Shown: positions 9,146-52,953, counted from the first letter of the stretch. The stretch is 64,000 bases of DNA from a candidate division WWE3 bacterium (GCA_943354835.1 CALRDH010000001.1:191298-255297); one strand, 5' to 3'. The notes: a model not told the origin generated them from the sequence alone. Made by a program: numbers and translations.

Positions 9146-9912
9146 TTTAATTTAAAAAATGCAAAGGCATTTTTCGTGGTTCTATCTTCTACCTCTTTTG
9201 TGGAAATCCCTTTGATTTCAGCAATTTCTTGTGCTACAAGTTTAACATATTTCGATGAATTTACTTTTACTCCAGCCTTTTTGGCGCTTATCGGAATTAG
9301 GTATGGAGAATCTGTTTCTAACATTATTTTTTCTAGTGGAATTCTTTTTATGGCGTCTCTTAAATCACCCGCGTTTGGGTATGTAACGATGCCTGTTATA
9401 GATAACATAAGTCCAAGATCTAAGGCTTTTTTTGCGGTTTCGTAATTTTCGCAAAAACAGTGCCAGACGGCGGGAAATGGGGCGCGCCCCATTTCCCGCC
9501 CTAATATATCTAATAAATCTTCTGTCCCTTGTCTTGAATGTATTATTATTGGCAAATTCAATTCTCTTGATATTTCAATTTGAGAAATAAACAAGGATGC
9601 TTGAGCATCCTTGCTTCTCTTTATTTCTGGTAAGTGTGGATTTGTATAATCAAGTCCACATTCTCCAATTGCGACAACTTTTTTGCTTCTTGCTAATTCT
9701 TTTATCAATTTCAATTTTTCCCCGTCTGGGATTTCATTTTCGGGAATTACATCATGAGGATAAAGTCCGCATGTTGCAAAAACGTGATCATTTGAATTTG
9801 CTTTTTCTACTGCGTTTTTAGCTTCAGACAATGTGTGTCCGATGAGTATCTCTATGTCTGCTCTTTCTTCGTTGTTTTCGGATATTGAGTGAGTGTGCGT
9901 ATCAACAATCAT
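9142..9912 (-). CDS. tatD: TatD-family metal-dependent hydrolase/DNase
   Basis: MIVDTHTHS... (HxH), ...IGECGLDY..., ...WHCF... and ...ETDSPYL... are the four TatD metal-binding motifs in order. Confidence 0.85.
   Translation of the reverse strand: MIVDTHTHSISENNEERADIEILIGHTLSEAKNAVEKANSNDHVFATCGLYPHDVIPENEIPDGEKLKLIKELARSKKVVAIGECGLDYTNPHLPEIKRSKDAQASLFISQIEISRELNLPIIIHSRQGTEDLLDILGREMGRAPFPAVWHCFCENYETAKKALDLGLMLSITGIVTYPNAGDLRDAIKRIPLEKIMLETDSPYLIPISAKKAGVKVNSSKYVKLVAQEIAEIKGISTKEVEDRTTKNAFAFFKLK
9469..9500. repeat. 32-bp perfect GC-rich palindrome GGCGGGAAATGGGGCGC|GCCCCATTTCCCGCC embedded in the tatD coding sequence
   Basis: Read directly; it encodes the GREMGRAPFPA loop of TatD. GC-rich in an AT-rich genome. 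Confidence 0.7.
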
Positions 9913-9916
9913 TTTA

Positions 9917-10447
9917 CTAGATGAAAAATGGGAATATTCTGATTATTGCGTATGATCCAATTATCGCGACAAGAATTCCCAAAAAAGCTCCGCCAATGAC
10001 GTCTGCAAGATAGTGCTTTCCAAGAAATATTCTTGTTATGGCGACGAGGCCTGCTATACCAAATACAAACATTGTTTCAACAATATTGTATTTATAATAT
10101 ATGGTCATGAGTGTTGCTAATGTAAAGATATTTGATGTGTGTCCTGACGGGAATGCTCCACTTGATAATTTCATCCCCCATAAATTATTTTTGAACGTGG
10201 TTTTTGGGCGTGGAATTTTGAATAAAAATTTTATTCCTTCAGCTATTATTAATTGCGTTAGATAAATAGGAACGAATGCGAAAAGTGCTTGATAACCGCT
10301 TATTACCGCAATTATTATAAGGATTATGCCAGCTCCGAATGAACTTCCGAGTTCTGTGAATATAAATATAAACTTTTTAATTCGAGAATCTTTTATATCA
10401 TTTTCGAAGTCAAAAGATGTTTTGAGCAAGGAATTTATTAGCTTCAT
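9917..10447 (-). CDS. PAP2-family lipid phosphatase (undecaprenyl/decaprenyl-diphosphate or phospho-sugar-lipid phosphatase-like)
   Basis: KFLFKIPRP...PSGHTS...HYLADVIGG matches the PAP2 signature KxxxxxxRP / PSGH / SRxxxxxHxxxD, with multiple TM helices. Confidence 0.7.
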   Translation of the reverse strand: MKLINSLLKTSFDFENDIKDSRIKKFIFIFTELGSSFGAGIILIIIAVISGYQALFAFVPIYLTQLIIAEGIKFLFKIPRPKTTFKNNLWGMKLSSGAFPSGHTSNIFTLATLMTIYYKYNIVETMFVFGIAGLVAITRIFLGKHYLADVIGGAFLGILVAIIGSYAIIRIFPFFI

Positions 10448-10508
10448 TTTGAGCTATTCTATCATTTAGCCTTTTGACTGCAAGCAATTTCTTTGATATC
10501 GTAGTCGC

Positions 10509-11474
10509 ATGGCTATAACAGAGTTTATGTCTGCACTCAACCAAGTTGCGAGCGAAAGAAATATTACTCCAAAAGATGTTTTGGATACATTGAAAGTTGC
10601 TTTGGTTGCTGCATATGTAAAAGATAATCCAGATATTGAAGAAGGTTCTGATCATAAAGTTGAAGCAGAAATCGATTCAGAAACTGGAGAAGTTAAAATT
10701 TTAAGAAATAAAAAAGACGTAACCCCTGCAGGTTTTGGCCGTATTGCTTCTCAAACAGCAAAGCAAGTAATTTTGCAAAAGATTAGAGAAGCAGAAAAAG
10801 AATCAATCGCTGATGAATATCGTGATTTAATTGGAACTATTGTTCAGGGTTATATTTTTAGGATTGATAAAGACACGGTTATTATGGATGTCGGTAAAAC
10901 TCAAGGAATATTACCTGTTTTTGAGCAAATTCCATCGGAAAGATATATGGTTAATCAAAAATATAAAGTTTTGATTAAAGATGTTTCTGACACCGAGGAT
11001 AGTTCAGGTTCAAATATTATACTTTCAAGAAAAGATGCAGGTTTTATAGAAGAACTTTTTAGACAAGAAGTGCCAGAAATTTCACAAGGTATCGTAAAAA
11101 TTGAAAGCATTGCACGTGAAGCTGGTCAAAGAACTAAAATCGCAGTTTCTTCAAAGGAAGAAAAAATTGATCCATCTGGAGCATGTATTGGCCAGCGTGG
11201 TGTACGCGTTCAGGCCGTTACCGACGAATTAAACGGCGAAAAAATCGATATTATAAACTATAGCCATGATGCTGATAAATTTATTGCAGCTTCTTTGGCC
11301 CCAGCTCATGTTTTAGATGTTGTTTTAAATGAATCCGATAAATCCGCAAAGATAATCGTCGCAGAAGATCAGCTTTCTTTAGCAATTGGAAACAAGGGTC
11401 AAAACGCAAGGCTTGCAGCAAAACTTACAGGATGGAAAATAAATATTGATGGCAACGAACCAGAGAAAGAATAA
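10509..11474 (+). CDS. nusA: Transcription termination/antitermination factor NusA
   Basis: N-terminus MAITEFMSALNQVASERNITPKDVLDTLKVALVAAY, S1-like segment, then KH segments GACIGQRGVRVQAV and NKGQNARLAAKLTGWKINI. Confidence 0.85.
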   Translation: MAITEFMSALNQVASERNITPKDVLDTLKVALVAAYVKDNPDIEEGSDHKVEAEIDSETGEVKILRNKKDVTPAGFGRIASQTAKQVILQKIREAEKESIADEYRDLIGTIVQGYIFRIDKDTVIMDVGKTQGILPVFEQIPSERYMVNQKYKVLIKDVSDTEDSSGSNIILSRKDAGFIEELFRQEVPEISQGIVKIESIAREAGQRTKIAVSSKEEKIDPSGACIGQRGVRVQAVTDELNGEKIDIINYSHDADKFIAASLAPAHVLDVVLNESDKSAKIIVAEDQLSLAIGNKGQNARLAAKLTGWKINIDGNEPEKE

Positions 11475-18355: not shown

Positions 18356-18432
18356 GGGCGGATAGCTCAACTGGTTAGAGCATCAAGCTTATACCTTGAA
18401 GGTTCATGGTTCGAGTCCATGTCCGCCCACCA
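18356..18432 (+). tRNA. tRNA-Ile with UAU anticodon (TAT), CCA encoded
   Basis: GGGCGGATAGCTCAACTGGTTAGAGCATCAAGCTTATACCTTGAAGGTTCATGGTTCGAGTCCATGTCCGCCCACCA has a perfect 5-bp anticodon stem TCAAG/CTTGA, loop CTTATAC (U33, A37) and discriminator A73. Confidence 0.8.
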
Positions 18433-39238: not shown

Positions 39239-39251
39239 CTTTCTATTATAC

Positions 39252-39293
39252 GGGCCAGGCCCGAAAGGGCCTAGGCCCTTTCGGGCCTGGCCC
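39252..39293. repeat. 42-bp perfect GC-rich palindrome GGGCCAGGCCCGAAAGGGCC-TA-GGCCCTTTCGGGCCTGGCCC forming the core of a divergent promoter pair
   Basis: Read directly. Each half contains a GGCCC-GAAA/TTTC-GGGCC hairpin. A TATAAT lies 1 nt beyond the left end on the minus strand, and TAGAAT lies 10 nt beyond the right end on the plus strand (ATG at 39317). Confidence 0.7.
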
Positions 39294-39316
39294 CCATAGA
39301 ATGCTAGAATATCCGC

Positions 39317-43053: not shown

Positions 43054-43128
43054 TCCGCGGTAGCTCAATGGTGGAGCAGATTCCTGTTAAGAATAAGGTT
43101 GTTGGTTCGAGCCCAACCCGCGGAGCCA
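43054..43128 (+). tRNA. tRNA-Asn (anticodon GTT)
   Basis: TCCGCGGTAGCTCAATGGTGGAGCAGATTCCTGTTAAGAATAAGGTTGTTGGTTCGAGCCCAACCCGCGGAGCCA has anticodon loop CTGTTAA and discriminator G73. Confidence 0.8.
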
Positions 43129-46176: not shown

Positions 46177-46337
46177 TTCTTAAAAAGATATTCTATTCGG
46201 AGTATTTGGATTACATTTGAAAGATTAAAATTCTCATTGGTCTATTCGAATATCAGTATCTCTGTTTTCAAATACTCCTTCACCATGAAATCAATTCTTG
46301 TAACATCCTCGACGCGGAGCCAAAATACCCCATAGTC

Positions 46338-46365
46338 TTGAAGTTCTCGCTTTTTCTGCTATAAT
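46338..46365 (+). promoter_or_regulatory. Near-consensus sigma-70 promoter (TTGAAG -16 nt- TATAAT) for lipoprotein gene A, paralogous to the promoter at 52227
   Basis: -35 at 46338-46343 and -10 at 46360-46365, followed by CCCATTCTCC, which is shared with promoter B. Confidence 0.5.
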
Positions 46366-46541
46366 TTCGCCCATTCTCCAAGGAATATAAACATATTGCT
46401 AATTCAGCATTCATTAAATCCTAGGGAGATAGTACATTAAAATGGCGGGTTAGCTCTTGTGTCTGCTTCCTAAAAATTACTCTTGTAAATTCAACGTGAA
46501 AATATAAGTGTGACCTTTAGGAGGTAGGCGTAGGAGCAAAA

Positions 46542-47114
46542 ATGCTTTGGAAAATCTTGATTAAATCTTTGTGGGAAAATTGGCCGGCCCTATTGGGTTT
46601 GGCTGCAATGGTATTACCTTTGGCTGCATGTCCACCAGAAGGTGCGACCTCAACCCCGATCCCGGCTGTAACGGCACAAGCGACATACGTCGCGCCGACT
46701 GCGGTGCCTTCGCAAGGAGAGATACTCGAAATCAATATGAGGATTAGCTCCGACGTCGAAGGAGGGAAATGCCTTTCAAGTGGAGACAAGTTTTACTTAA
46801 GTCTTCAAATGGAAGGAATCCCCGAAGATTGGGAAGGGCCTAGATCGGCTAACGTGATTTTTCAAGTCGGTCTTCTGGAAGATGGCCAAATTTGGGTTTT
46901 GAACGAAACCCAGGCCATTAAATTCCAGCTTGACACGGGCGAGACGGCCCAAGGGTCCATAAGGGTAGTTTTTTCACTACCCGACGGATCCGCTGTGAGA
47001 TTCGAAAATCCGGAGTTTCCATACTTCAGATATACGGGTCAAAACCAGGAGGGCAAGTTTTGTTTTGATTTGCCTTTTGGAACGTCTCCAGGAGCGCCTT
47101 TGCGAAAGGCCTAG
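46542..47114 (+). CDS. GC-rich secreted lipoprotein-like protein A (lipobox LAAC)
   Basis: MLWKILIKSLWENWPALLGLAAMVLPLAAC|PPEG...; markedly higher GC than surroundings; two Cys in the mature part. Confidence 0.5.
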   Translation: MLWKILIKSLWENWPALLGLAAMVLPLAACPPEGATSTPIPAVTAQATYVAPTAVPSQGEILEINMRISSDVEGGKCLSSGDKFYLSLQMEGIPEDWEGPRSANVIFQVGLLEDGQIWVLNETQAIKFQLDTGETAQGSIRVVFSLPDGSAVRFENPEFPYFRYTGQNQEGKFCFDLPFGTSPGAPLRKA

Positions 47115-47142
47115 CTAGCGCGAATTAACCCGCCATCGCACC

Positions 47143-47208
47143 GGACTACGGATCAGTCATGATGTGTGCCCATAAAGCCACCTCCCCATCAATGACAATC
47201 CGTAGTCC
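47143..47208. repeat. Imperfect ~21-bp inverted repeat (GGACTACGGATCAGTCATGAT / ATCAATGACAATCCGTAGTCC) flanking a 22-nt core, immediately 3' of lipoprotein gene A
   Basis: Read directly; the 11 outer bases form a perfect IR and no T-run follows. Confidence 0.4.
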
Positions 47209-47249
47209 AAGTTCCAAATATTCTTTTCCCAAGCTGATATAATTGTCAC

Positions 47250-47735
47250 GTGTCTAAAATCCTTATTAGTTCATGTCTTCTTGGTTTAAATACTAGGTAT
47301 GATGGTAAGAATAAATTAAATGAAAAGCTTGTGGAGCTGGCAAGAAATAAACAAATTGTTTTTGTTTGTCCAGAACAGTTGAGTGGTTTGTCTACGCCAA
47401 GAGAGCCTGCAGAAATTGAAGCAGGAAAATCGTCTAAAGATGTACTTGAAGGTAATGCCCGCGTTATAACAATTTCAGGAAATACCCAAACAAAAGAATT
47501 TCTTATCGGCGCACAAAAGACATTGGATTTATGTAAAAGTCTTGATATAAAAGTCGCGATTTTGAAAGAGAATAGTCCTTCGTGTGCCTCAAATAATGTA
47601 TATGATGGAACCTTTAAAGGCGGGAAAATTCCAGGCACCGGCGTTGTCGCAGAGCTTTTAAAACAAAACGGCATTACCGTATACAACGAAGACAACTATC
47701 CATTGAGTTTGTTTGATAGCACTAAGCAAATCTAA
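47250..47735 (+). CDS. DUF523-family protein
   Basis: MSKILISSCLLGLNTRYDGKNK...VFVCPEQLSGLSTPREPAEI resembles DUF523 (YbbK-like) proteins. Confidence 0.5.
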   Translation: MSKILISSCLLGLNTRYDGKNKLNEKLVELARNKQIVFVCPEQLSGLSTPREPAEIEAGKSSKDVLEGNARVITISGNTQTKEFLIGAQKTLDLCKSLDIKVAILKENSPSCASNNVYDGTFKGGKIPGTGVVAELLKQNGITVYNEDNYPLSLFDSTKQI

Positions 47736-47775
47736 ATATACACACAATTTGTGTGGCTTTAGGAAAGTATGATTT

Positions 47776-48930
47776 TTAGTATATGAATCCTGACAGGTTT
47801 TCTTTGTTTATTAATCCAAATTCGCCATTTTCGTATTCGAGCCATTTAGATGGTGTTTTCTTTTTGGTGTCGGAGTATTTTATTTCATATCCAAATAATT
47901 TGCCTTCTCTATCTTCTACAAGATCTATTTCACTTCCGTCATACGTTCGCCAAAAATGTTGTGTTGCGTATATTCTGTGGTATTCCCTAAATTTCATTCG
48001 TTCCGATATCACGAAATTTTCCCATACATGGCCAAGGTCAGTTCTTTTATCGAATGTATTGAAATTATCCAAAATAGCGTTTCTTATACCAACATCGTAG
48101 AAGAATATTTTTTTGCTTGTAGATATTTCCCGACGTTTATTTTTTGAATATGATGGAAGTCTATATATAACAAAGCTTTTCTCAAGCAAGTCCACATATC
48201 TTTCAACAGTTTTTGAATCAATTTTTAGTAAATTAGACAATTCTGTATACGATACTTGTGAGCCGATTTGTAATGCTAATGCTTTTAAGAGGTCATTTAA
48301 AACCTGCGGATTTTTAATCTCCTGAAATTCGAGTATATCTTTAAATAAATAGCTTGACGTAATTTCTTTCAATAACCGTATCTTTTCGTCATCGGAGTCA
48401 GTTTTAATAATTTCTGGATACATTCCAAATCGTAAAAAAGAAGGAATGCTTTTTATAGCGGCAAGCTTGCCTTTGTCTGCAATGTATTCTTCAAAGCTTA
48501 TCGGATAAAGTTGATATGTAAACTTTCTTCCTGTTAAAGGCTCTGATGTGGATTGCAGTAAGTTTATGCTTGAAGATCCTGTCAAAATTATTTGTTTAGT
48601 TTTTTTGTAGTTATCTACAAGAAGTTTTATTGTGATGCCAATGTTAGGCACTCTTTGAGCCTCGTCAATTAGTACTATTTCGTTGTCACCAATAATTCCG
48701 TCGAGTTGTGTGAAATCTTTATTTCTTAGTACGTCTATGTCGGTGGAGTCATCTGCATTAAGCCTTAGAATTTTTTTGTTTTTGTATGTTGTGTTGAGTT
48801 GATCAAGTAATGTTGTTTTCCCGACTTGCCTTGCTCCGACTATAATAATCACCTTGCCTTTAAAGAAATCTTTAATTATAAGTGGTTCTTGAAGCCTTTT
48901 TATGTCAGCCATAATAAATTTATACCACAA
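47776..48930 (-). CDS. AAA+ ATPase with C-terminal DUF4143 (COG1373-type)
   Basis: Walker A GARQVGKTT, Walker B VLIDEAQ, and a C-terminal DUF4143-like region; 384 aa. Confidence 0.75.
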   Translation of the reverse strand: MWYKFIMADIKRLQEPLIIKDFFKGKVIIIVGARQVGKTTLLDQLNTTYKNKKILRLNADDSTDIDVLRNKDFTQLDGIIGDNEIVLIDEAQRVPNIGITIKLLVDNYKKTKQIILTGSSSINLLQSTSEPLTGRKFTYQLYPISFEEYIADKGKLAAIKSIPSFLRFGMYPEIIKTDSDDEKIRLLKEITSSYLFKDILEFQEIKNPQVLNDLLKALALQIGSQVSYTELSNLLKIDSKTVERYVDLLEKSFVIYRLPSYSKNKRREISTSKKIFFYDVGIRNAILDNFNTFDKRTDLGHVWENFVISERMKFREYHRIYATQHFWRTYDGSEIDLVEDREGKLFGYEIKYSDTKKKTPSKWLEYENGEFGLINKENLSGFIY

Positions 48931-48935
48931 ATTAC

Positions 48936-48969
48936 GCGTAAATCAAGGATTACGATCCTTGGTTTACGC
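48936..48969. promoter_or_regulatory. Inverted repeat with 14-bp arms GCGTAAATCAAGGA/TCCTTGGTTTACGC (6-bp spacer) abutting the -10 region of the DUF4143 ATPase gene; putative operator
   Basis: Perfect complement with one G-T position; a TATAAAT lies between the IR and the ATG on the minus strand. Confidence 0.4.
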
Positions 48970-49261
48970 ATAGTATAAAACATTATTTTGCGGTTAAGAA
49001 ACAATAGTGAGTAGTGTGGTGGGGTAAGTTACATTTCGTCTTGTGAGACTAAGTTCGGAATGTAAATAAATTCATTCTGCTTCTCAAAAAAAGTTCTAAC
49101 GTCGTACACAGTGCGGAGCCAAAATATCCATAACGTTTCTTGTTTCTGCCCTGAATAAAATTTTTGATACTACTTGGCTGGGAAGGCTCCTTTTCTTCAA
49201 TATTTTGAATTATTCCGTTGTATATATCTTCTTCACTTCCTGTAGTCTTTTCACTAACCTT

Positions 49262-49443
49262 ACGTAAGCAAGGAAAATGCAAATAGTCGTGAATATACTA
49301 ATACTGTTGTTTTTGATATATCCGGAAGTCACAAAGACATTGCGGATCAAATTGCTCAAATACTTGGTGGTTCAGTTGTAAGTCAAATGCCATCTGGAGA
49401 AAATAAACCAGATGCAGATATTTTGATTATTGCTGGTAAGTAA
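49262..49443 (+). pseudogene. Possible frameshifted small LytR_C-domain gene: a TM-like ORF from the ATG at 49277 in one frame and a LytR_C-like ORF in the +2 frame
   Basis: One frame reads MQIVVNILILLFLIYPEV... from 49277; the +2 frame reads ...NTVVFDISGSHKDIADQIAQILGGSVVSQMPSGENKPDADILIIAGK* with no start codon. The latter resembles the LytR_C domain seen at 60423..61646. Confidence 0.25.
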
Positions 49444-50116
49444 ATTCTCCGTAGATTATAACTTTTGTTCCTTTGTCTTCATCTGATGCTTTTACTGTTC
49501 GTTTGTCTCCCATTTCTGGCGTTGTCCATGCGAATAACTTTTCTGCATCTTCATTTCTCATGTTAAGGCATCCGTGGCTTTGTGGTGTTCCAAATTTGTC
49601 GTGCCAGTATGTTCCGTGAAAGCTAAAGCCTTTTGACCAAGGGATTTCATCATTTCCGAAAAATTGTACAAATTGAACATTGGGAAGATAGTAGTAAGTG
49701 TGAAGCGCTTTACTTCCGCCAGACATTTTTTGTGAAGTTGTTTTATATGCAATAGTGAATTCTCCAGTTGGAGTTTTGCCCCATTTCCCAGACGAAATTA
49801 AAAATTCCATAACTTTTTCATCGCCCTCAAATGCGTATACCATTTGTTTTGATAAATCTACTTCGATGTGTTTTTCAACGGTTGAATCTGATTCACTGTC
49901 TCCTAATACCTGACTTTCAGATGATGCAAAATCGGATGATATAACTTTTTTCCCAAGAAACTCTCCAACTTGATTTTTAGTATCGTAAGTGCCCAAGGAG
50001 TTTAAATTATCTGATGTTGGTTCCCATTGATTTGTAAAGTAATAGGGTAAAACATTTATATAAAGATAGGAGGCGATGGCCAAAGTCAAAAATCCTAACA
50101 GCTTCTTACTGGGCAT
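49427..50116 (-). CDS. L,D-transpeptidase (YkuD-domain) with N-terminal signal/anchor
   Basis: Catalytic motif ...PQSHGCLNMRNEDAEKLFAW (H-G-C) within a YkuD-like domain. Confidence 0.7.
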   Translation of the reverse strand: MPSKKLLGFLTLAIASYLYINVLPYYFTNQWEPTSDNLNSLGTYDTKNQVGEFLGKKVISSDFASSESQVLGDSESDSTVEKHIEVDLSKQMVYAFEGDEKVMEFLISSGKWGKTPTGEFTIAYKTTSQKMSGGSKALHTYYYLPNVQFVQFFGNDEIPWSKGFSFHGTYWHDKFGTPQSHGCLNMRNEDAEKLFAWTTPEMGDKRTVKASDEDKGTKVIIYGEFTYQQ

Positions 50117-50178
50117 AAATCTATCTTAGTTAGAATTAGTAATTTGCACAAGTTCCTTTATTAAAGTAAGGTTAGTTT

Positions 50179-51102
50179 ATGAAATTGTTAAAACTGCTCA
50201 CTTCATTTTTGTTTATTCTTTTGTTAACTTTATACGCCTTTGCTCCAAACAAGGTTTACGCTTTTAATTTTTTTGGTGCTGTTTTAGGTGATGAGGATCA
50301 AAGTGACGGCAAAGATGAGGACGAGAATGAGAATGAGGATGAAAAAGATGATGAGGACCAAGAAGATGAAGACGACGAGGAAAAAGAAGAAGAGGAGAAG
50401 GAAGAAGAAGAGAATAAAGAAACTAGAACAACGACGGTGAATTCTGATGGCACAAGAACGGTTGTTAAAAGAAAGGTTGAGGATAATGGAAAGATCGAGA
50501 TCGAATCAAAGACGTATAGCATTAGTGGAAAGGTTATCGAGGAACAAAAAATAAAAAGTGGCGATAATGAAATTGAAGCTGAATTTAAAGGGATTTCTGA
50601 AGTAAAGTTTAAATCGAAAAATGGCGATGATTTTAAGTTGATGATTAAAGATGAGAATAAGATTCTTACGAAGGTTGTATATGATTCTGTTGAAAACAAC
50701 ATGCGTGTTGTAGGAAAGCCTGAAGATGAAAGTGATGATGTTTTAATTCGCGAAGAAAAAGACGGCACATATGAAATTGAAAAAGATGGCGAAAAGATGC
50801 AGGTTTTGTTGCCACTAACTGTTGATGATTCTGATGGAACTATTTCTGTTTTAACGGATTCTGGCGAGAAAACTTTGACGAATTTTCCAGATGAGCTTTT
50901 GAAAAAGGCTAAATCAACGGTCAAAGTAAAAGAAAAAGACGGCAAAGTTATATATGAACTTAGCGAAGAAAAAGCAGAAAAATTATTAGGGCTTTTTCAA
51001 ACAAATATCGCAAGCCTTGTTACATACGACGCTGAAACCGGAAACGAAATCGAAAGCCAACAAGACTTTTGGAACAAAATGATCGATGCGATTAGCTTCT
51101 GA
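50179..51102 (+). CDS. Secreted protein with long acidic (D/E-rich) low-complexity region
   Basis: Signal peptide, then DEDQSDGKDEDENENEDEKDDEDQEDEDDEEKEEEEKEEEENKE, then a beta-rich domain. Confidence 0.4.
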   Translation: MKLLKLLTSFLFILLLTLYAFAPNKVYAFNFFGAVLGDEDQSDGKDEDENENEDEKDDEDQEDEDDEEKEEEEKEEEENKETRTTTVNSDGTRTVVKRKVEDNGKIEIESKTYSISGKVIEEQKIKSGDNEIEAEFKGISEVKFKSKNGDDFKLMIKDENKILTKVVYDSVENNMRVVGKPEDESDDVLIREEKDGTYEIEKDGEKMQVLLPLTVDDSDGTISVLTDSGEKTLTNFPDELLKKAKSTVKVKEKDGKVIYELSEEKAEKLLGLFQTNIASLVTYDAETGNEIESQQDFWNKMIDAISF

Positions 51103-51113
51103 TACAATAGGTA

Positions 51114-52004
51114 TTGATGAAACTCGAAAAAAGACTTATTTCAACTAATTTTGTTAAGACTCCGACTAAAAAGTATGGGATTTGTATTCACACTATGGTG
51201 GGAACTCTTTCTGGTACCGATTCTTTTTTTAGAAATCCAGCAGCTAAGGTTAGTTCACATTATGGTGTAGATTTAACGACAGATTCTGTTTATCAATGGG
51301 TAGAGGAGGGAAATATTGCGTGGGCGCAAGGGCGTATTAGCGGTCCGACAAATAAGCTTGTTTTAGATAAGGGTGGAGATCCAAACGAGTATTTTATTTC
51401 TATCGAATGTGCTGATAGTAGAAATCCTGCTGGGGCTGATAGATCATTGCAAACAAAAACAGTTGCAGAGCTTGTTGCTGATATTGTAACTCGAAATAAT
51501 ATTCCTTTAGATCGTGATCATGTTTGTGGACATAGGGAAATTTATGATAAGAAGAGTTGTCCAGGAAATTTAAATATCGATCAGATTGTAGAAATGGCTC
51601 GTGATATAATTTCTGGAATGGCAGATAATTTACTTGATCCAACAAAAGATTTACCAGCATGGTTAGAGGATATGTATGGTCTTAAAGATAAGGCTTGGTA
51701 TGATAAGCGCGGTAATTTCGGAGATGTTGTTAAAAAAGCTGATAGTTTGTATTCCAATGAACAGATTTTAAATAAGAGGATTGAAACTCTTGATAAAAAG
51801 GTTCTTGAATTGAATGCAAAGGTTTTGGAATTGAATAAGAAGTTGAGTGAATCAAGCCCATTACAAGGTGAAGTTGATGCTTTAAAAAGTAAACTTTCAA
51901 AAGCCGAAGCCGAAATTGTAGCTTTAAATAAAAAAATCGCAAATCAAACAAATCCATTTGAGGACTTTATAAAATACCTCGTTAACCTAGTAAAAAGATC
52001 GTAA
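51114..52004 (+). CDS. N-acetylmuramoyl-L-alanine amidase (Amidase_2/PGRP fold) with C-terminal coiled-coil
   Basis: GICIHTMVG...SSHYGVD...ISIECAD...CGHREIYDKKSCPGN carries the zinc ligands (H, H, C) typical of Amidase_2; the C-terminal 80 aa are heptad-rich. Confidence 0.65.
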   Translation: MMKLEKRLISTNFVKTPTKKYGICIHTMVGTLSGTDSFFRNPAAKVSSHYGVDLTTDSVYQWVEEGNIAWAQGRISGPTNKLVLDKGGDPNEYFISIECADSRNPAGADRSLQTKTVAELVADIVTRNNIPLDRDHVCGHREIYDKKSCPGNLNIDQIVEMARDIISGMADNLLDPTKDLPAWLEDMYGLKDKAWYDKRGNFGDVVKKADSLYSNEQILNKRIETLDKKVLELNAKVLELNKKLSESSPLQGEVDALKSKLSKAEAEIVALNKKIANQTNPFEDFIKYLVNLVKRS

Positions 52005-52226
52005 AAGTCTGAGATTTAATTCCAGGAGTTTCTTTCTTTTTGTAAATAGCTTTTATTTTTTTTATATAAATTTTTGGATAAACCTTTTAGTGATTTTAGT
52101 TTGGTTTTAAGTTTTACGTTAAACTTTCCTGTATTCATATTAAATTTAATAGTACAAAAATATTTCTCTTTTGTCTGCGTAGTAATCTGCGCGATTATCG
52201 CGTGGTACAGATTGAAAAATACCCGC

Positions 52227-52254
52227 TTGCAAATATCCTATAGTTATGTATAAT
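52227..52254 (+). promoter_or_regulatory. Near-consensus sigma-70 promoter (TTGCAA -16 nt- TATAAT) for lipoprotein-like gene B, paralogous to the promoter at 46338
   Basis: -35 at 52227-52232 and -10 at 52249-52254, followed by CCCATTCTGC. A 13-bp palindrome CGCGAT-T-ATCGCG lies about 30 nt upstream. Confidence 0.5.
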
Positions 52255-52421
52255 CATCCCCATTCTGCTCAGGCACATTAAAAAAGTGCCTACTTACTGA
52301 AAGCCACGCTCAAAACCGAAAACTTGTCCCATTACCAAACAGGTGTAGTGAGAGTGACTCTCAGGAGGTAGGCAAAAAAACGTCGAAGTTCAAAAAACAA
52401 ACCCGCAGCTAGGAGCTAACA

Positions 52422-52868
52422 ATGTTAGTTTTCGTTTTGTTGAAGAACATTAAAAAAATCGTAGTTCCGGTTGGTCTTGTAATCATGATGTTGCTACTCG
52501 CAGCATTTGAGTGCACTCCTGAGGAGCCACGGGGGAAAGCCCTCCAGCCGGTCTACGGAACATCGTCGGAACAAGCAGTCGTGCAAAGATTTGTACAAAT
52601 ACGGTCAGCAAAAAGCTGCGAGCCATATTTTGAGGTCGAGATGACATCCCAAGGGGCAAGACACACTTACACAATTGTGAAGAGCCCGGCAGGGTTAGGG
52701 GTTGGTCTTGTCGACGACCCGAATAATTTCAATCTAGTGCGGCTTGATGACGAAGTCGAGATGGAATTCGAAGAAGGTTTCAAAGCCACCTTTGACCCTA
52801 CTCCGGCGTTCAATCCAGAAACCGGCTGTTTTGAGTCACAAGATTTTGCCGTGATTTTTAGACGTTAG
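52422..52868 (+). CDS. GC-rich secreted protein B (signal peptide ending LLAAFEC, lipobox-like)
   Basis: MLVFVLLKNIKKIVVPVGLVIMMLLLAAFEC|TPEEP...; high GC; two Cys in the mature part, including a C-terminal GCFES comparable to KFCFD in protein A. Confidence 0.45.
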   Translation: MLVFVLLKNIKKIVVPVGLVIMMLLLAAFECTPEEPRGKALQPVYGTSSEQAVVQRFVQIRSAKSCEPYFEVEMTSQGARHTYTIVKSPAGLGVGLVDDPNNFNLVRLDDEVEMEFEEGFKATFDPTPAFNPETGCFESQDFAVIFRR

Positions 52869-52871
52869 CCC

Positions 52872-52908
52872 TCCCTCCGCCGTACCGCGGTACTTTTCAA
52901 TTTTTTGT
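52872..52908 (+). terminator. Putative intrinsic terminator (GTACCGCGGTAC palindrome plus T-rich tract) after gene B
   Basis: CCGCCGTACCGCGGTACTTTTCAATTTTTTG begins 3 nt after the stop. Confidence 0.3.
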
Positions 52909-52953
52909 TTTGTGTTTTAGGCTTTTTAACCTATAATATTTCTTGTTTTTATT

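Follow-up and report, generated by a model that had tools for sequence, protein, structure and literature searches.

The window analysed here, that is, the whole 64-kb stretch of DNA, contains two plus-strand genes, gene A (46542..47114, 190 aa, GC3 0.48) and gene B (52422..52868, 148 aa, GC3 0.48), which are most likely genes for small exported proteins of foreign codon composition. A first reading, made from the sequence alone, had described both as enriched in GC and rich in Ala, Pro and Gly, and this description is borne out by sliding-window GC (450 and 500 nt), by GC3 and by residue content. In 500-nt windows the GC content rises to 0.49 at A and 0.46 at B, compared with ∼0.345 for the whole window, and the top 25 GC windows of the 64 kb (450 nt each) all fall within A or B (25/25; z = 3.3–4.4). 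The GC3 values (0.482 for A and 0.483 for B) lie outside the range of 18 other genes (0.229–0.349), which indicates that codon usage, and not amino-acid content alone, has been shifted. Ala, Pro and Gly together account for 26% of the residues of A and 20% of those of B (mean 14%, range 10–20% for comparison).

The product of gene A has at its N-terminus a signal peptide that ends in LAAC, followed by a low-complexity linker and then by a mature beta-sandwich domain containing two Cys. The B product begins with a hydrophobic signal-like segment that is homologous to the A-family segment, and continues into a beta-rich mature part that is an orphan: no B homologues were found, even by exhaustive HMMER search, and comparison of the mature parts of A and B detected no similarity. 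Both signal peptides had been read as ending in a lipobox-like Cys, a claim that holds in part. The pattern used was of the PROSITE PS00013 type, {DERK}(6)-[LIVMFWSTAG](2)-[LIVMFYSTAGCQ]-[AGS]-C, sought downstream of an N-region containing K/R and inside the first 35 residues. Gene A (PLAAC) misses this strict pattern at position -4, although its LAAC core fits [LVI][ASTVI][GAS]C, and one of five homologues (L123) passes the strict regular expression; B was rejected as a lipobox protein, as AFEC fails position -1. Lipidation of the A family is plausible from the conservation of the Cys at the point where the hydrophobic region ends.

Each gene is preceded by a predicted promoter on the plus strand. 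The A promoter region (46323..46377) comprises AAATACCCCATAG (46323–46335), a -35 element TTGAAG (46338–46343), a 16-nt spacer, a -10 element TATAAT (46360–46365) and CCCATTCT (46370–46377), whilst the B region (52227..52266) comprises TTGCAA (52227–52232), AAATATCCTATAG (52231–52243), TATAAT (52249–52254) and CCCATTCT (52259–52266). The two had been described as a pair of near-consensus promoters; in agreement, TTGAAG-16-TATAAT (46338–46365) and TTGCAA-16-TATAAT (52227–52254) are the two best-scoring sigma-70-like sites in the 45.5–53.5 kb interval (10/12 each), where the overall count of promoter-like sites shows no excess over chance, and they lie just upstream of A and B. The combination TATAAT-N4-CCCATTCT occurs exactly twice, at these two promoters, from which A and B would be transcribed. 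At two loci with A homologues (L128 and L132) a znf gene precedes the homologue and no clear promoter is seen before the leader, so there the 5′ UTR may lie within an operon transcript.

Gene A lies among the remains of an integrative element. A tRNA-Asn(GTT) gene (43054..43128, plus strand; ARAGORN and Rfam) ends in CGCGGAGCCA (43119–43128), the att core, which is repeated downstream. The first repeat closes scar 1 (46238..46322, minus strand), a large serine recombinase remnant, derived from the C-terminal tail (..FWLRVEDVTRIDFMVKEYLKTEILIFE and stop), that ends in CGCGGAGCCA at 46313–46322 and directly abuts the A promoter; scar 2 (49004..49121, minus strand), a second recombinase-tail remnant (..WLRTVYDVRTFFEKQNEFIYIPNLVSQDEM and stop), ends in GCGGAGCCA (49113–49121), followed by AAATATCC. 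A repeat of the tRNA-Asn 3′ end lies on either side of gene A. As the window holds the tRNA, two repeats and two tail remnants with no recombinase gene, these features are read as degenerate remnants. An intact version is found at a related locus, L125, where an 11-kb element has integrated at tRNA-Asn (11133–11207), with the A homologue as its final cargo gene. There a 550-aa ORF (9522–11174) runs into the tRNA and matches the same-position gene of the sister locus L128 (Pfam Resolvase, Recombinase, Zn_ribbon_recom), and GCGGAGCCA is repeated beside the A homologue, such that L125 has the tRNA end, the 3′-end repeat and the internal recombinase of a tRNA-specific integrative element; replication or packaging genes were not seen in its 11 kb. 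Since the 3′ end of the recombinase gene spans attP, integration swaps its last ∼30 codons. The arrangement resembles the tycheposons of Prochlorococcus, tRNA-targeting integrative elements that form tandem arrays with degenerate remnants (bioRxiv 10.1101/2020.12.28.424599), in its integration at a tRNA 3′ end, in the partial tRNA repeats and recombinase fragments downstream, and in its cargo genes within the array; it differs in using a large serine recombinase and in its CPR-like host.

No att repeat was found at B. What the two genes have in common is the promoter, the leader and the signal peptide, and for B nothing more. Homology between the two 5′ regions sets in upstream of the -35 element, continues across the leader and reaches into the signal peptide, so that the leaders are conserved well beyond the promoter hexamers. 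The proposal of a duplicated or mobilized promoter–leader cassette with divergent secreted cargo is thus upheld by homologous 5′ regions joined to unlike mature parts, with mobilization directly supported for A. A sigma-70-type promoter, a 5′ UTR of ∼160–170 nt and a signal peptide would together make up a 5′ expression module.

Within this 5′ UTR, the main feature is a long RNA stem-loop, P2 (74–92 nt, −30 to −40 kcal/mol), in which AGGAGGUAGGC is base-paired to a 5′ arm rich in pyrimidines. The sequence-only reading had picked out a shared 20-nt block, GTGACYYTNAGGAGGTAGGC, and this was found at both sites (46510–46529 and 52354–52373; chance expectation 0); as AGGAGGTAGGC occurs only twice in the window, it is no general RBS context. 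The block had been placed after a short hairpin, which needs correction, as it is instead the 3′ arm of the long one. In A, P2 occupies 46453..46537 on the plus strand (85 nt; −40.5 kcal/mol; z = −8.8), with a lower stem of 22 bp that includes six G-U pairs and a 3′ arm that holds the conserved block at 46507–46529 and AGGAGGUAGGC at 46519–46529. In the B leader (52272..52374, plus strand), a small hairpin P1 (GGCAC, 52272–52276; GUGCC, 52286–52290) overlaps the base of P2 (52287–52374; −32.3 kcal/mol; z = −4.4), and the block lies at 52351–52373. Each P2 copy folds as one extended hairpin (z = −4.4 to −8.8; none of 200 shuffles was equally stable), and the block is fully base-paired within it in every isolated and full-length fold. 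The 19-nt consensus of the 3′ arm, UGACYYUYAGGAGGUAGGC, contains a perfect 7-nt Shine–Dalgarno (SD)-like sequence.

A P2-type leader precedes every A homologue found, across six metagenomic lineages with ∼55–60% protein identity, on contigs from groundwater metagenomes. Third codon positions of the adjacent gene differ by 0.5–0.69 for most lineage pairs and by 0.29–0.46 among the closest, and across the loci the 19-nt block is identical save at its Y positions, with variation in the paired part confined to the 5′ arm. In an alignment of eight P2 sequences, 98% of cells are paired, compared with 34–48% in slid registers. Compensatory double changes occur in three pairs, and single changes that preserve pairing, nearly all to or from G-U, in seven. 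Of 500 shuffles, one matched the covariation score of the alignment and 54 its count of pairs changed on both sides; with only about six independent sequences, the covariation is modest. Leader identity is 81–90% and CDS identity 68–84% among the A-type loci outside the window, and the window copy of A is 60–65% identical to them in leader and CDS alike. The leader of B resembles the leaders of distant A homologues more than it does that of A in the same genome, which indicates that the A/B duplication is not recent. It would be hard to credit, and was already disfavoured, that the hairpin is a functionless relic, unselected, and that the shared upstream sequence only records a 5′ gene segment that was recently duplicated or recombined: A and B do share everything from promoter through signal peptide, as segmental duplication would give, but the kinship of the B leader with distant homologues speaks against recency, the 19-nt arm is identical in lineages with near-saturated synonymous sites, and changes in the 5′ arm are constrained towards pairing.

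A covariance model built on P2 scored 88.7 and 87.5 bits on the plus strand and 28–34 bits on the minus strand, with no further match in the 64 kb; the far higher plus-strand score argues for a plus-strand RNA. It also bears on a DNA-level reading, which would have the mobile element use the inverted repeats for recombination or protein binding, for instance as att arm sites, transposon ends or an operator. In keeping with such a role, the A cassette adjoins the att repeats of the serine-recombinase element, a AAATAYCCNATAG motif is shared by the two promoters and comes up again after the second att repeat, and the stems of a hairpin in the 3′ UTR of A-type genes are invariant on both arms, as would fit equally a DNA site recognized by sequence and an RNA. 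This reading is nevertheless very unlikely given the strand difference (88 against ∼30 bits), the P2 substitutions, which nearly all preserve G-U pairs on one strand and would be C-A mismatches on the other, the position and orientation of P2, which are constant for two different cargo genes (between the promoter and the start codon), and the lack of an att repeat at B.

The suggestion that the leaders hold a cis-regulatory RNA is thereby reinforced: a conserved stem-loop is present, with wobble-preserving and compensatory changes and plus-strand covariance scores. It had also been stated that neither leader could be named as a riboswitch, and indeed Rfam gives no match for either. At gathering scores, Rfam 15 found only tRNAs in the whole window, and E-value scans of both leaders and the 3′ hairpin returned weak matches to eukaryotic miRNAs, sRNAs, lncRNAs and snoRNAs, far below gathering scores. 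A riboswitch in the generic sense was rejected, as in place of a multi-helix aptamer the P2 consensus is a single unbranched stem-loop with 0 branch points, and the sole alternative pairing in the leader is the 5-bp overlap between P1 and the base of P2. Such a single long hairpin resembles an element of processing, stability or translation more than a ligand sensor.

The true SD and AUG lie 10–50 nt downstream of the P2 block. A second AGGAG before each ATG, as had been claimed, is present for both genes: in A at 46532–46536, with a small putative SD/AUG hairpin P3 read from the sequence (GAGCA-AAAA-UGCUU; 46532..46549, plus strand), and in B at 52411–52415, with its P3 (GGAGCUAAC-AAU-GUUAGUUUU; 52411..52435, plus strand); an equivalent, GAGCAU-UACA-AUGCUU, occurs in all A homologues. 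Relative to the A-type leaders, B carries an insertion of ∼38 nt between P2 and the true SD/P3. The SD-like sequence within P2 appears to serve no start codon of its own, as ATG, GTG and TTG are absent from the 5–12 nt after the block in the A types and B; the ATG follows this first AGGAGG(U) at 17–19 nt in the A types, and in B at 52 nt, past an in-frame stop. In the window copy of A alone, the 3′ arm of P2 also covers the true SD (46532–46536), which lies outside P2 in B and every homologue (6/7 lineages); direct translational repression is therefore not a conserved feature.

These positions weigh on a simpler reading, in which P2 is a repressor or sensor hairpin (an RNA thermometer, or SD occlusion gated by a protein or helicase) whose melting frees the ribosome-binding sequences with no RNase step. 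Pairing of the SD-like sequence to a U/C-rich strand through many G-U pairs is reminiscent of ROSE and fourU thermometers, P3 hairpins are found in all copies, and in the window copy of A the P2 stem covers the true SD as well. We nonetheless consider it improbable: ROSE and fourU elements rely on a marginally stable helix and were rejected as a class for P2, which at −30 to −40 kcal/mol is far above what physiological temperatures melt, the functional SD escapes P2 in the lineages just named, and a heat-shift signal seems implausible for contigs of groundwater origin.

On balance, P2 is probably a new cis-acting 5′ UTR element that controls mRNA processing, stability or translation and that sits on mobilized cargo genes. 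The element would act post-transcriptionally, with the SD-like sequence of the 3′ arm locked against the anti-SD-like, pyrimidine-rich 5′ arm. Given the stability of the duplex, the buried block would be freed only by RNase III-type (double-strand-specific) cleavage or by active unwinding. Hairpins of this kind are known from RNase III leaders such as those of the T7 early and late mRNAs, lambda N and E. coli adhE, where an occluded RBS can be released, or a stabilizing hairpin left behind, by cleavage. P2 shares with them a long near-perfect stem with a small internal loop in a 5′ UTR, the known examples standing before strongly expressed genes, but it matches none of the Rfam families in sequence or covariance, and its cleavage is a prediction. 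Once freed, the block could bind 30S subunits as a stabilizer or standby site, in the manner of STAB-SD, and this binding would set mRNA half-life and ribosome loading. STAB-SD elements of the Bacillus thuringiensis cry3A type are 5′ mRNA stabilizers in which a strong, accessible SD-like sequence lies upstream of the real RBS. In the hbs mRNA of B. subtilis, ribosome-dependent protection is combined with a structured 5′ UTR, and a 5′/3′ UTR interaction modulates RNase access (PMC5737220). The A and B leaders are like both in carrying a strong SD-like sequence well before the real RBS and in lacking a start codon that this sequence could use; they are unlike STAB-SD in that a −30 to −40 kcal/mol hairpin encloses the block and makes it inaccessible, and in their CPR-like host. 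RNase processing of P2 and its effect on mRNA stability or translation would both follow from this favoured reading, and P2 could also be a mere constitutive stabilizer or a protein-binding site.

The 3′ ends of the genes offer a further partner for the block. A-type genes carry a 3′ UTR hairpin (47143..47208 in A, plus strand) with an invariant 11-bp basal stem (GGACUACGGAU/AUCCGUAGUCC) and an apical loop GCCACCUCC (47177–47185) that is complementary to the leader block; the hairpin is 83–97% identical across A-type loci, exceeding the conservation of the CDS, and in homologues a U-rich tract follows it. An integron attC cassette was considered for this hairpin and rejected, as it is bounded by GGACTACGGAT and ATCCGTAGTCC, without the R′ (GTTRRRY) or R″ (RYYYAAC) core sites, and the genes have their own promoters, whereas the ORF of such a cassette is promoterless. 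The 3′ end of B (52869..52910, plus strand) consists of CCCUCCCUCC (52869–52878) right after the stop, a hairpin like that of an intrinsic terminator (52879–52891) and a T-rich tail. Control of stability or translation through SD-linked UTRs has been published for hbs (PMC5737220) and for icaR of S. aureus, where pairing of the 5′ and 3′ UTRs blocks initiation and creates an RNase III substrate (PMC3868564). By analogy, the C-rich loop (GCUUACCUCC or GCCACCUCC) might base-pair with GGAGGUAGGC, the block of the leader, and so regulate translation or give rise to an RNase III site; it would do this in cis or, as a 3′UTR-derived small RNA, in trans on the leaders of both genes. The loop is unpaired in folds of the full-length mRNA, both of its variants remain complementary to the block (9–10 bp, −16.7 to −19.1 kcal/mol; p = 0.002–0.045 against shuffled 3′ UTRs in the A family), and the 3′ UTR of A ranks within the top five block targets among 1278 window segments. 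Cross-talk of this kind is still doubtful. In icaR the target is the functional SD, whereas in A the complement is the upstream SD-like block, which pairs with its local 5′ arm in all full-length MFE folds and cofolds, leaving both hairpins local and the 5′–3′ helix absent. B has the leader and lacks the 3′ hairpin, and the complementarity of its CCCUCCCUCC to the block is not significant (p = 0.23). An invariant leader 3′ arm offers no covariation with the 3′ loop, and with its U-rich tract the 3′ hairpin may be a plain terminator or stabilizer.

The cis-acting element favoured above could also be one part of a three-part SD/anti-SD switch that CPR bacteria would carry on mobile cargo genes, in which the invariant block AGGAGGUAGGC, a 'super-SD', would be contested by the local anti-SD-like 5′ arm, the exposed ACCUCC loop of the 3′ hairpin and the 16S rRNA tail, with the 3′ hairpin acting in cis or as a 3′UTR-derived small RNA on the A and B leaders. 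We regard this elaboration as a long shot; if it is true, the mobile element carries a portable post-transcriptional circuit for surface-protein genes, usable before unrelated cargo.

The window is AT-rich (34.6% GC), and genes A (46542-47114) and B (52422-52868), both of which encode small exported proteins with a signal peptide, are its only strong compositional outliers. GC content peaks in 500-nt windows at 0.49 over A and 0.46 over B, and of the 450-nt windows across the 64 kb the top 25 by GC all fall in A or B (z = 3.3-4.4). The shift is located in codon third positions, where GC (GC3) is 0.482 and 0.483 for A and B vs 0.229-0.349 in 18 neighbouring genes, and there is a smaller amino-acid effect too: Ala+Pro+Gly make up 26% of A and 20% of B against a mean of 14%. 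The GC enrichment proposed in a sequence-only reading of the window is therefore borne out, as are the near-consensus paired promoters it described, since TTGAAG-16-TATAAT (46338-46365) and TTGCAA-16-TATAAT (52227-52254) are the best two promoter-like sites in 8 kb. The extended motif TATAAT-N4-CCCATTCT is confined, within the window, to these A and B sites. The conserved 20-nt block of the leaders, GTGACYYTNAGGAGGTAGGC, which might have proved ubiquitous in the genome, was found in the window in two places only, the leaders of A and B, where 0 are expected.

A near-match of the block on the reverse strand at 52288-52307 revealed that it makes up the 3′ half of a longer inverted repeat, and folding gave a single extended stem-loop, termed P2, in each leader (A: 46453-46537, -40.5 kcal/mol, z = -8.8; B: 52287-52374, -32.3 kcal/mol, z = -4.4). 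The recurring block picked out by eye is real, and has to be redescribed as one arm of this hairpin. Within P2, AGGAGGUAGGC is paired with a pyrimidine-rich 5′ arm that resembles an anti-Shine-Dalgarno (anti-SD) sequence, with many G-U pairs. Ahead of P2 is a short hairpin, P1 (GCAC/GUGC stem, loop AUUAAAWAA), whilst the real SD (AGGAG) and the AUG are found downstream, inside a small hairpin, GAGCA(U)-loop-(A)UGCUU at A-type loci and GGAGCUAAC-AAU-GUUAGUUUU at B; the B leader has ~38 extra nt between P2 and the real SD. Rfam scans of the leaders matched no family, in keeping with the earlier statement that no riboswitch could be named in them.

Relatives of protein A are few: only a handful, from groundwater and other metagenomes, were found among 5.8 billion proteins searched (54-60% identical, with a further, partial match at 85%), and one additional A-type locus was recovered by a DNA pattern scan. 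The same leader is present at every A-type locus with upstream sequence. Differences at codon third positions are near saturation in most lineage pairs (0.5-0.69; 0.29-0.46 among the closest), and despite this UGACYYUYAGGAGGUAGGC is constant across lineages; changes in the paired part of this block are restricted to its 5′ arm partner and keep the pairing. In the P2 alignment 98% of cells are paired, vs 34-48% in slid registers: seven pairs show a one-sided change, nearly all to or from G-U, and three have changed on both sides (G-C to A-U, C-G to A-U and C-G to U-A). The observed covariation score, which rests on ~6 independent sequences, was reached by 1/500 shuffles, and the support it lends to P2 is suggestive rather than overwhelming. 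When a covariance model made from the alignment was scanned against the window, it recovered the two leaders only, at 88 bits on the (+) strand vs about 30 on the (-) strand. Two rival explanations are a site that acts at the DNA level and a relic without function; the pairing-preserving variation, the covariation and the strand-biased model scores argue for an RNA structure that is specific to one strand and maintained by purifying selection.

Scans of viral contigs for the leader block gave 0 matches, and a metagenome scan with the two-arm leader pattern gave one true locus and two chance matches. The scan of genome contigs used GTGACNNNNAGGAGGTAGGC, too loose a pattern: the matches listed were chance occurrences in GC-rich genomes, and the one Patescibacteria match among them lies inside an alaS-like coding sequence. 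The weak profile match P0009 is without the leader and unrelated. An intergenic repeat of Bacillaceae (Cytobacillus, Sporosarcina and related; loci L033, L034, L036, L050, L087, L098, L101, L102 and L120) is multi-copy, ~110 nt in length and folds into a long hairpin; CCUCC is contained in the 5′ arm, and the 3′ arm (..UGUGACCUCGAGGAGGUAGGCGCUGGAGC) bears a striking likeness to the window block. The repeat shares its locus with copies of Bacillaceae-1 RNA in L033 and L034, the two scanned loci in which copies turned up. Its likeness to the block is probably convergence or chance. The block presumably also resembles the T7 gene 10 ‘epsilon’ leader, a likeness given no weight here. Within the window, a GC-rich perfect palindrome, GGGCCAGGCCCGAAAGGGCCTAGGCCCTTTCGGGCCTGGCCC (39243-39296), located directly upstream of dnaG in AT-rich surroundings, gave weak covariance-model matches on both strands.

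Similarity between proteins A and B ends after the signal peptide, where LLKNWKGL..GL...L..AC is aligned with LLKNIKKIVVPVGL...LLLAAFEC. No homology between the mature parts was detected by BLASTP or hhalign, which align the signal peptide only, and MAFFT leaves the Cys residues of A and B unaligned; a two-Cys framework common to both, apparent on visual inspection, was not accepted as evidence, and the lipobox proposed for the two proteins is only partly supported. Neither protein matched Pfam, NCBIfam or PHROGs, and B had no homologue among 1.84 billion representatives searched exhaustively with HMMER. The mature part of A is predicted to form a beta-sandwich (pLDDT 84-92), a model for which comparison with the PDB gave no meaningful neighbour. 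The leader of B is closer to those of distant A homologues than to that of gene A, with which it shares a genome. Because A/B similarity is confined to the 5′ part and the signal peptide, gene B is an A-family promoter-leader-signal-peptide module fused to another mature domain, one that is either unrelated to that of A or unrecognisably diverged. The interpretation offered earlier, a duplicated or mobilised cassette of promoter and leader with divergent secreted cargo, was essentially right.

A-type genes are also followed by a 66-nt hairpin (47143-47208 in the window), which has an invariant 11-bp basal stem and is 83-97% identical across loci, exceeding the coding sequence; viral-contig scans for it gave 0 matches. 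In the apical loop GCUUACCUCC or GCCACCUCC is left exposed and is complementary to the leader block over 9-10 bp (-16.7 to -19.1 kcal/mol, p = 0.002-0.045 in a probe-based test), which speaks for a rival reading whereby the loop would pair with the block, 5′-3′ or in trans, in the manner of the Staphylococcus aureus icaR mRNA (PMC3868564). When the complete 5′ and 3′ UTRs were folded against each other as a duplex, shuffles scored as well, so that fold carried no information. Full-length folds keep the block in its local hairpin, and B is without the 3′ hairpin: all that its 3′ end offers is a CCCUCCCUCC tract with an ordinary terminator, and complementarity to the block is not significant. 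Since the block stays local in the folds and the complementarity in B is non-significant, icaR-like pairing is ranked as a rival and not as the main model.

The A homologues are followed, on the opposite strand, by a short reading frame that closes with ..WLR plus about 28 aa. Two contigs that carry A homologues, L125 and L128, are otherwise identical and part exactly at TGGCTCCGC (GCGGAGCCA on the + strand). This 9-mer is the 3′ end of tRNA-Asn and the att core of a serine-recombinase integrative element. L125 contains a complete 11-kb integrated element, in the order tRNA-Asn; a 550-aa large serine recombinase, the last codons of which (WLRGLDSNQQPYS-stop) run antisense to the tRNA; an HTH_17 protein; a type IIG restriction-modification enzyme; an HTH protein; znf, a small GC-rich gene of the DnaJ zinc-finger type; the A homologue; the original tail of the recombinase, displaced; and the GCGGAGCCA repeat (recombinase-to-tRNA region 9522-11207, distal site about 129). 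This gene order places attP within the recombinase gene and makes A the attR-proximal cargo; as the frame spans attP, integration swaps the last roughly 30 codons for tRNA antisense. Apart from znf and A, which alone are GC-rich, the L125 element is AT-rich, so the GC anomaly belongs to the cargo genes themselves, and the mobile-element context explains it as a cargo signature; its cause may be either a GC-richer donor pool or selection.

In the window, the 3′ end of tRNA-Asn (43054-43128) recurs at 46313-46322 and again at 49113-49121. A recombinase-tail remnant precedes each repeat and AAAATAYCC follows it; between the repeats are gene A and the genes for a 2-thiouracil desulfurase and an AAA_14/DUF4143 ATPase. 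The window has no recombinase gene, only the two tail-plus-repeat scars, which resemble the degenerate tandem remnants reported for other elements that target tRNA genes (bioRxiv 10.1101/2020.12.28.424599).

Several further observations concern these regions. L128 and L125/L129, from different samples, are identical over ~10.7 kb and split exactly after GCGGAGCCA (10746 onward), where one contig continues into a chromosomal-like flank, GTTAGGGC (cf. the window tRNA flank GTTAGTAC), and the other into the remainder of a further recombinase-like ORF, a difference suggestive of single vs tandem integration states in one population. The GC-rich znf encodes 60-71 aa with CxxCxGxG repeats, has its own TTGCAA/TATAAT-like promoter and gives a weak Pfam DnaJ_CXXCXGXG match, below the gathering score. 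It is upstream of the A homologue in L125 (1051-1266, - strand), L128 (about 9609-9824) and L132 (2-210, apparently a pseudogene), and downstream in L133 (about 888-1070); the window has none. The motif AAATAYCC(N)ATA(G/A) occurs right after both att repeats (46323-46335 and 49122-49134), in the B promoter (52231-52243) and in the znf promoter of relatives (L128, about 9560), and may be part of an extended att/arm site or a common promoter element. An ORF in the metagenomic contig L121 (882-1322), ~250 nt downstream of an A homologue, resembles by eye an IS30-family transposase, a further sign of plastic regions around the cassettes. Elsewhere in the window, ARAGORN called a tRNA-Ile with anticodon UAU (18356-18432).

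In both leaders, a conserved, extremely stable, transcription-oriented stem-loop buries a perfect 7-nt SD-like sequence upstream of the real ribosome-binding site, and it is reused before two cargos. A simple repressor hairpin is a further rival account; a thermometer or spontaneous breathing is disfavoured because P2 is so stable. The conserved SD-like arm, without a usable start codon, recalls STAB-SD elements (5′ mRNA stabilisers with an SD-like sequence) and standby sites, and RNase III classically acts on long, near-perfect duplexes interrupted by a small internal loop. P2 would act on the mRNA: its processing or unwinding would make the block accessible to 30S subunits and determine mRNA stability and ribosome loading. 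We lean towards P2 being a cis-acting post-transcriptional element of this general type.

The leader hairpin, joined in the A family by the 3′ hairpin, is a small and new family of RNA motifs, carried on mobilised cargo genes of a bacterium that is probably CPR-like, judging by its gene content, its AT-richness and the groundwater in which the relatives were found; it belongs to a known kind, structured 5′ UTR elements based on SD/anti-SD pairing, and its known distribution is tiny. To our knowledge, CPR/Patescibacteria-like bacteria cannot be grown alone, and almost nothing is known of their post-transcriptional control. A compact RNA element, absent from Rfam and better conserved than the genes it serves, now has defined coordinates and structure; it fronts two apparently unrelated exported proteins and is tied to a tRNA-Asn-specific integrative element, which itself documents a serine recombinase with attP inside the recombinase reading frame. 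Among the proteins of these epibionts, those of the surface are the likeliest mediators of host attachment. If the proposed control of stability or translation is true, P2 would be a useful part for heterologous expression and, for the bacteria themselves, a portable expression module for surface proteins, probably horizontally exchanged.
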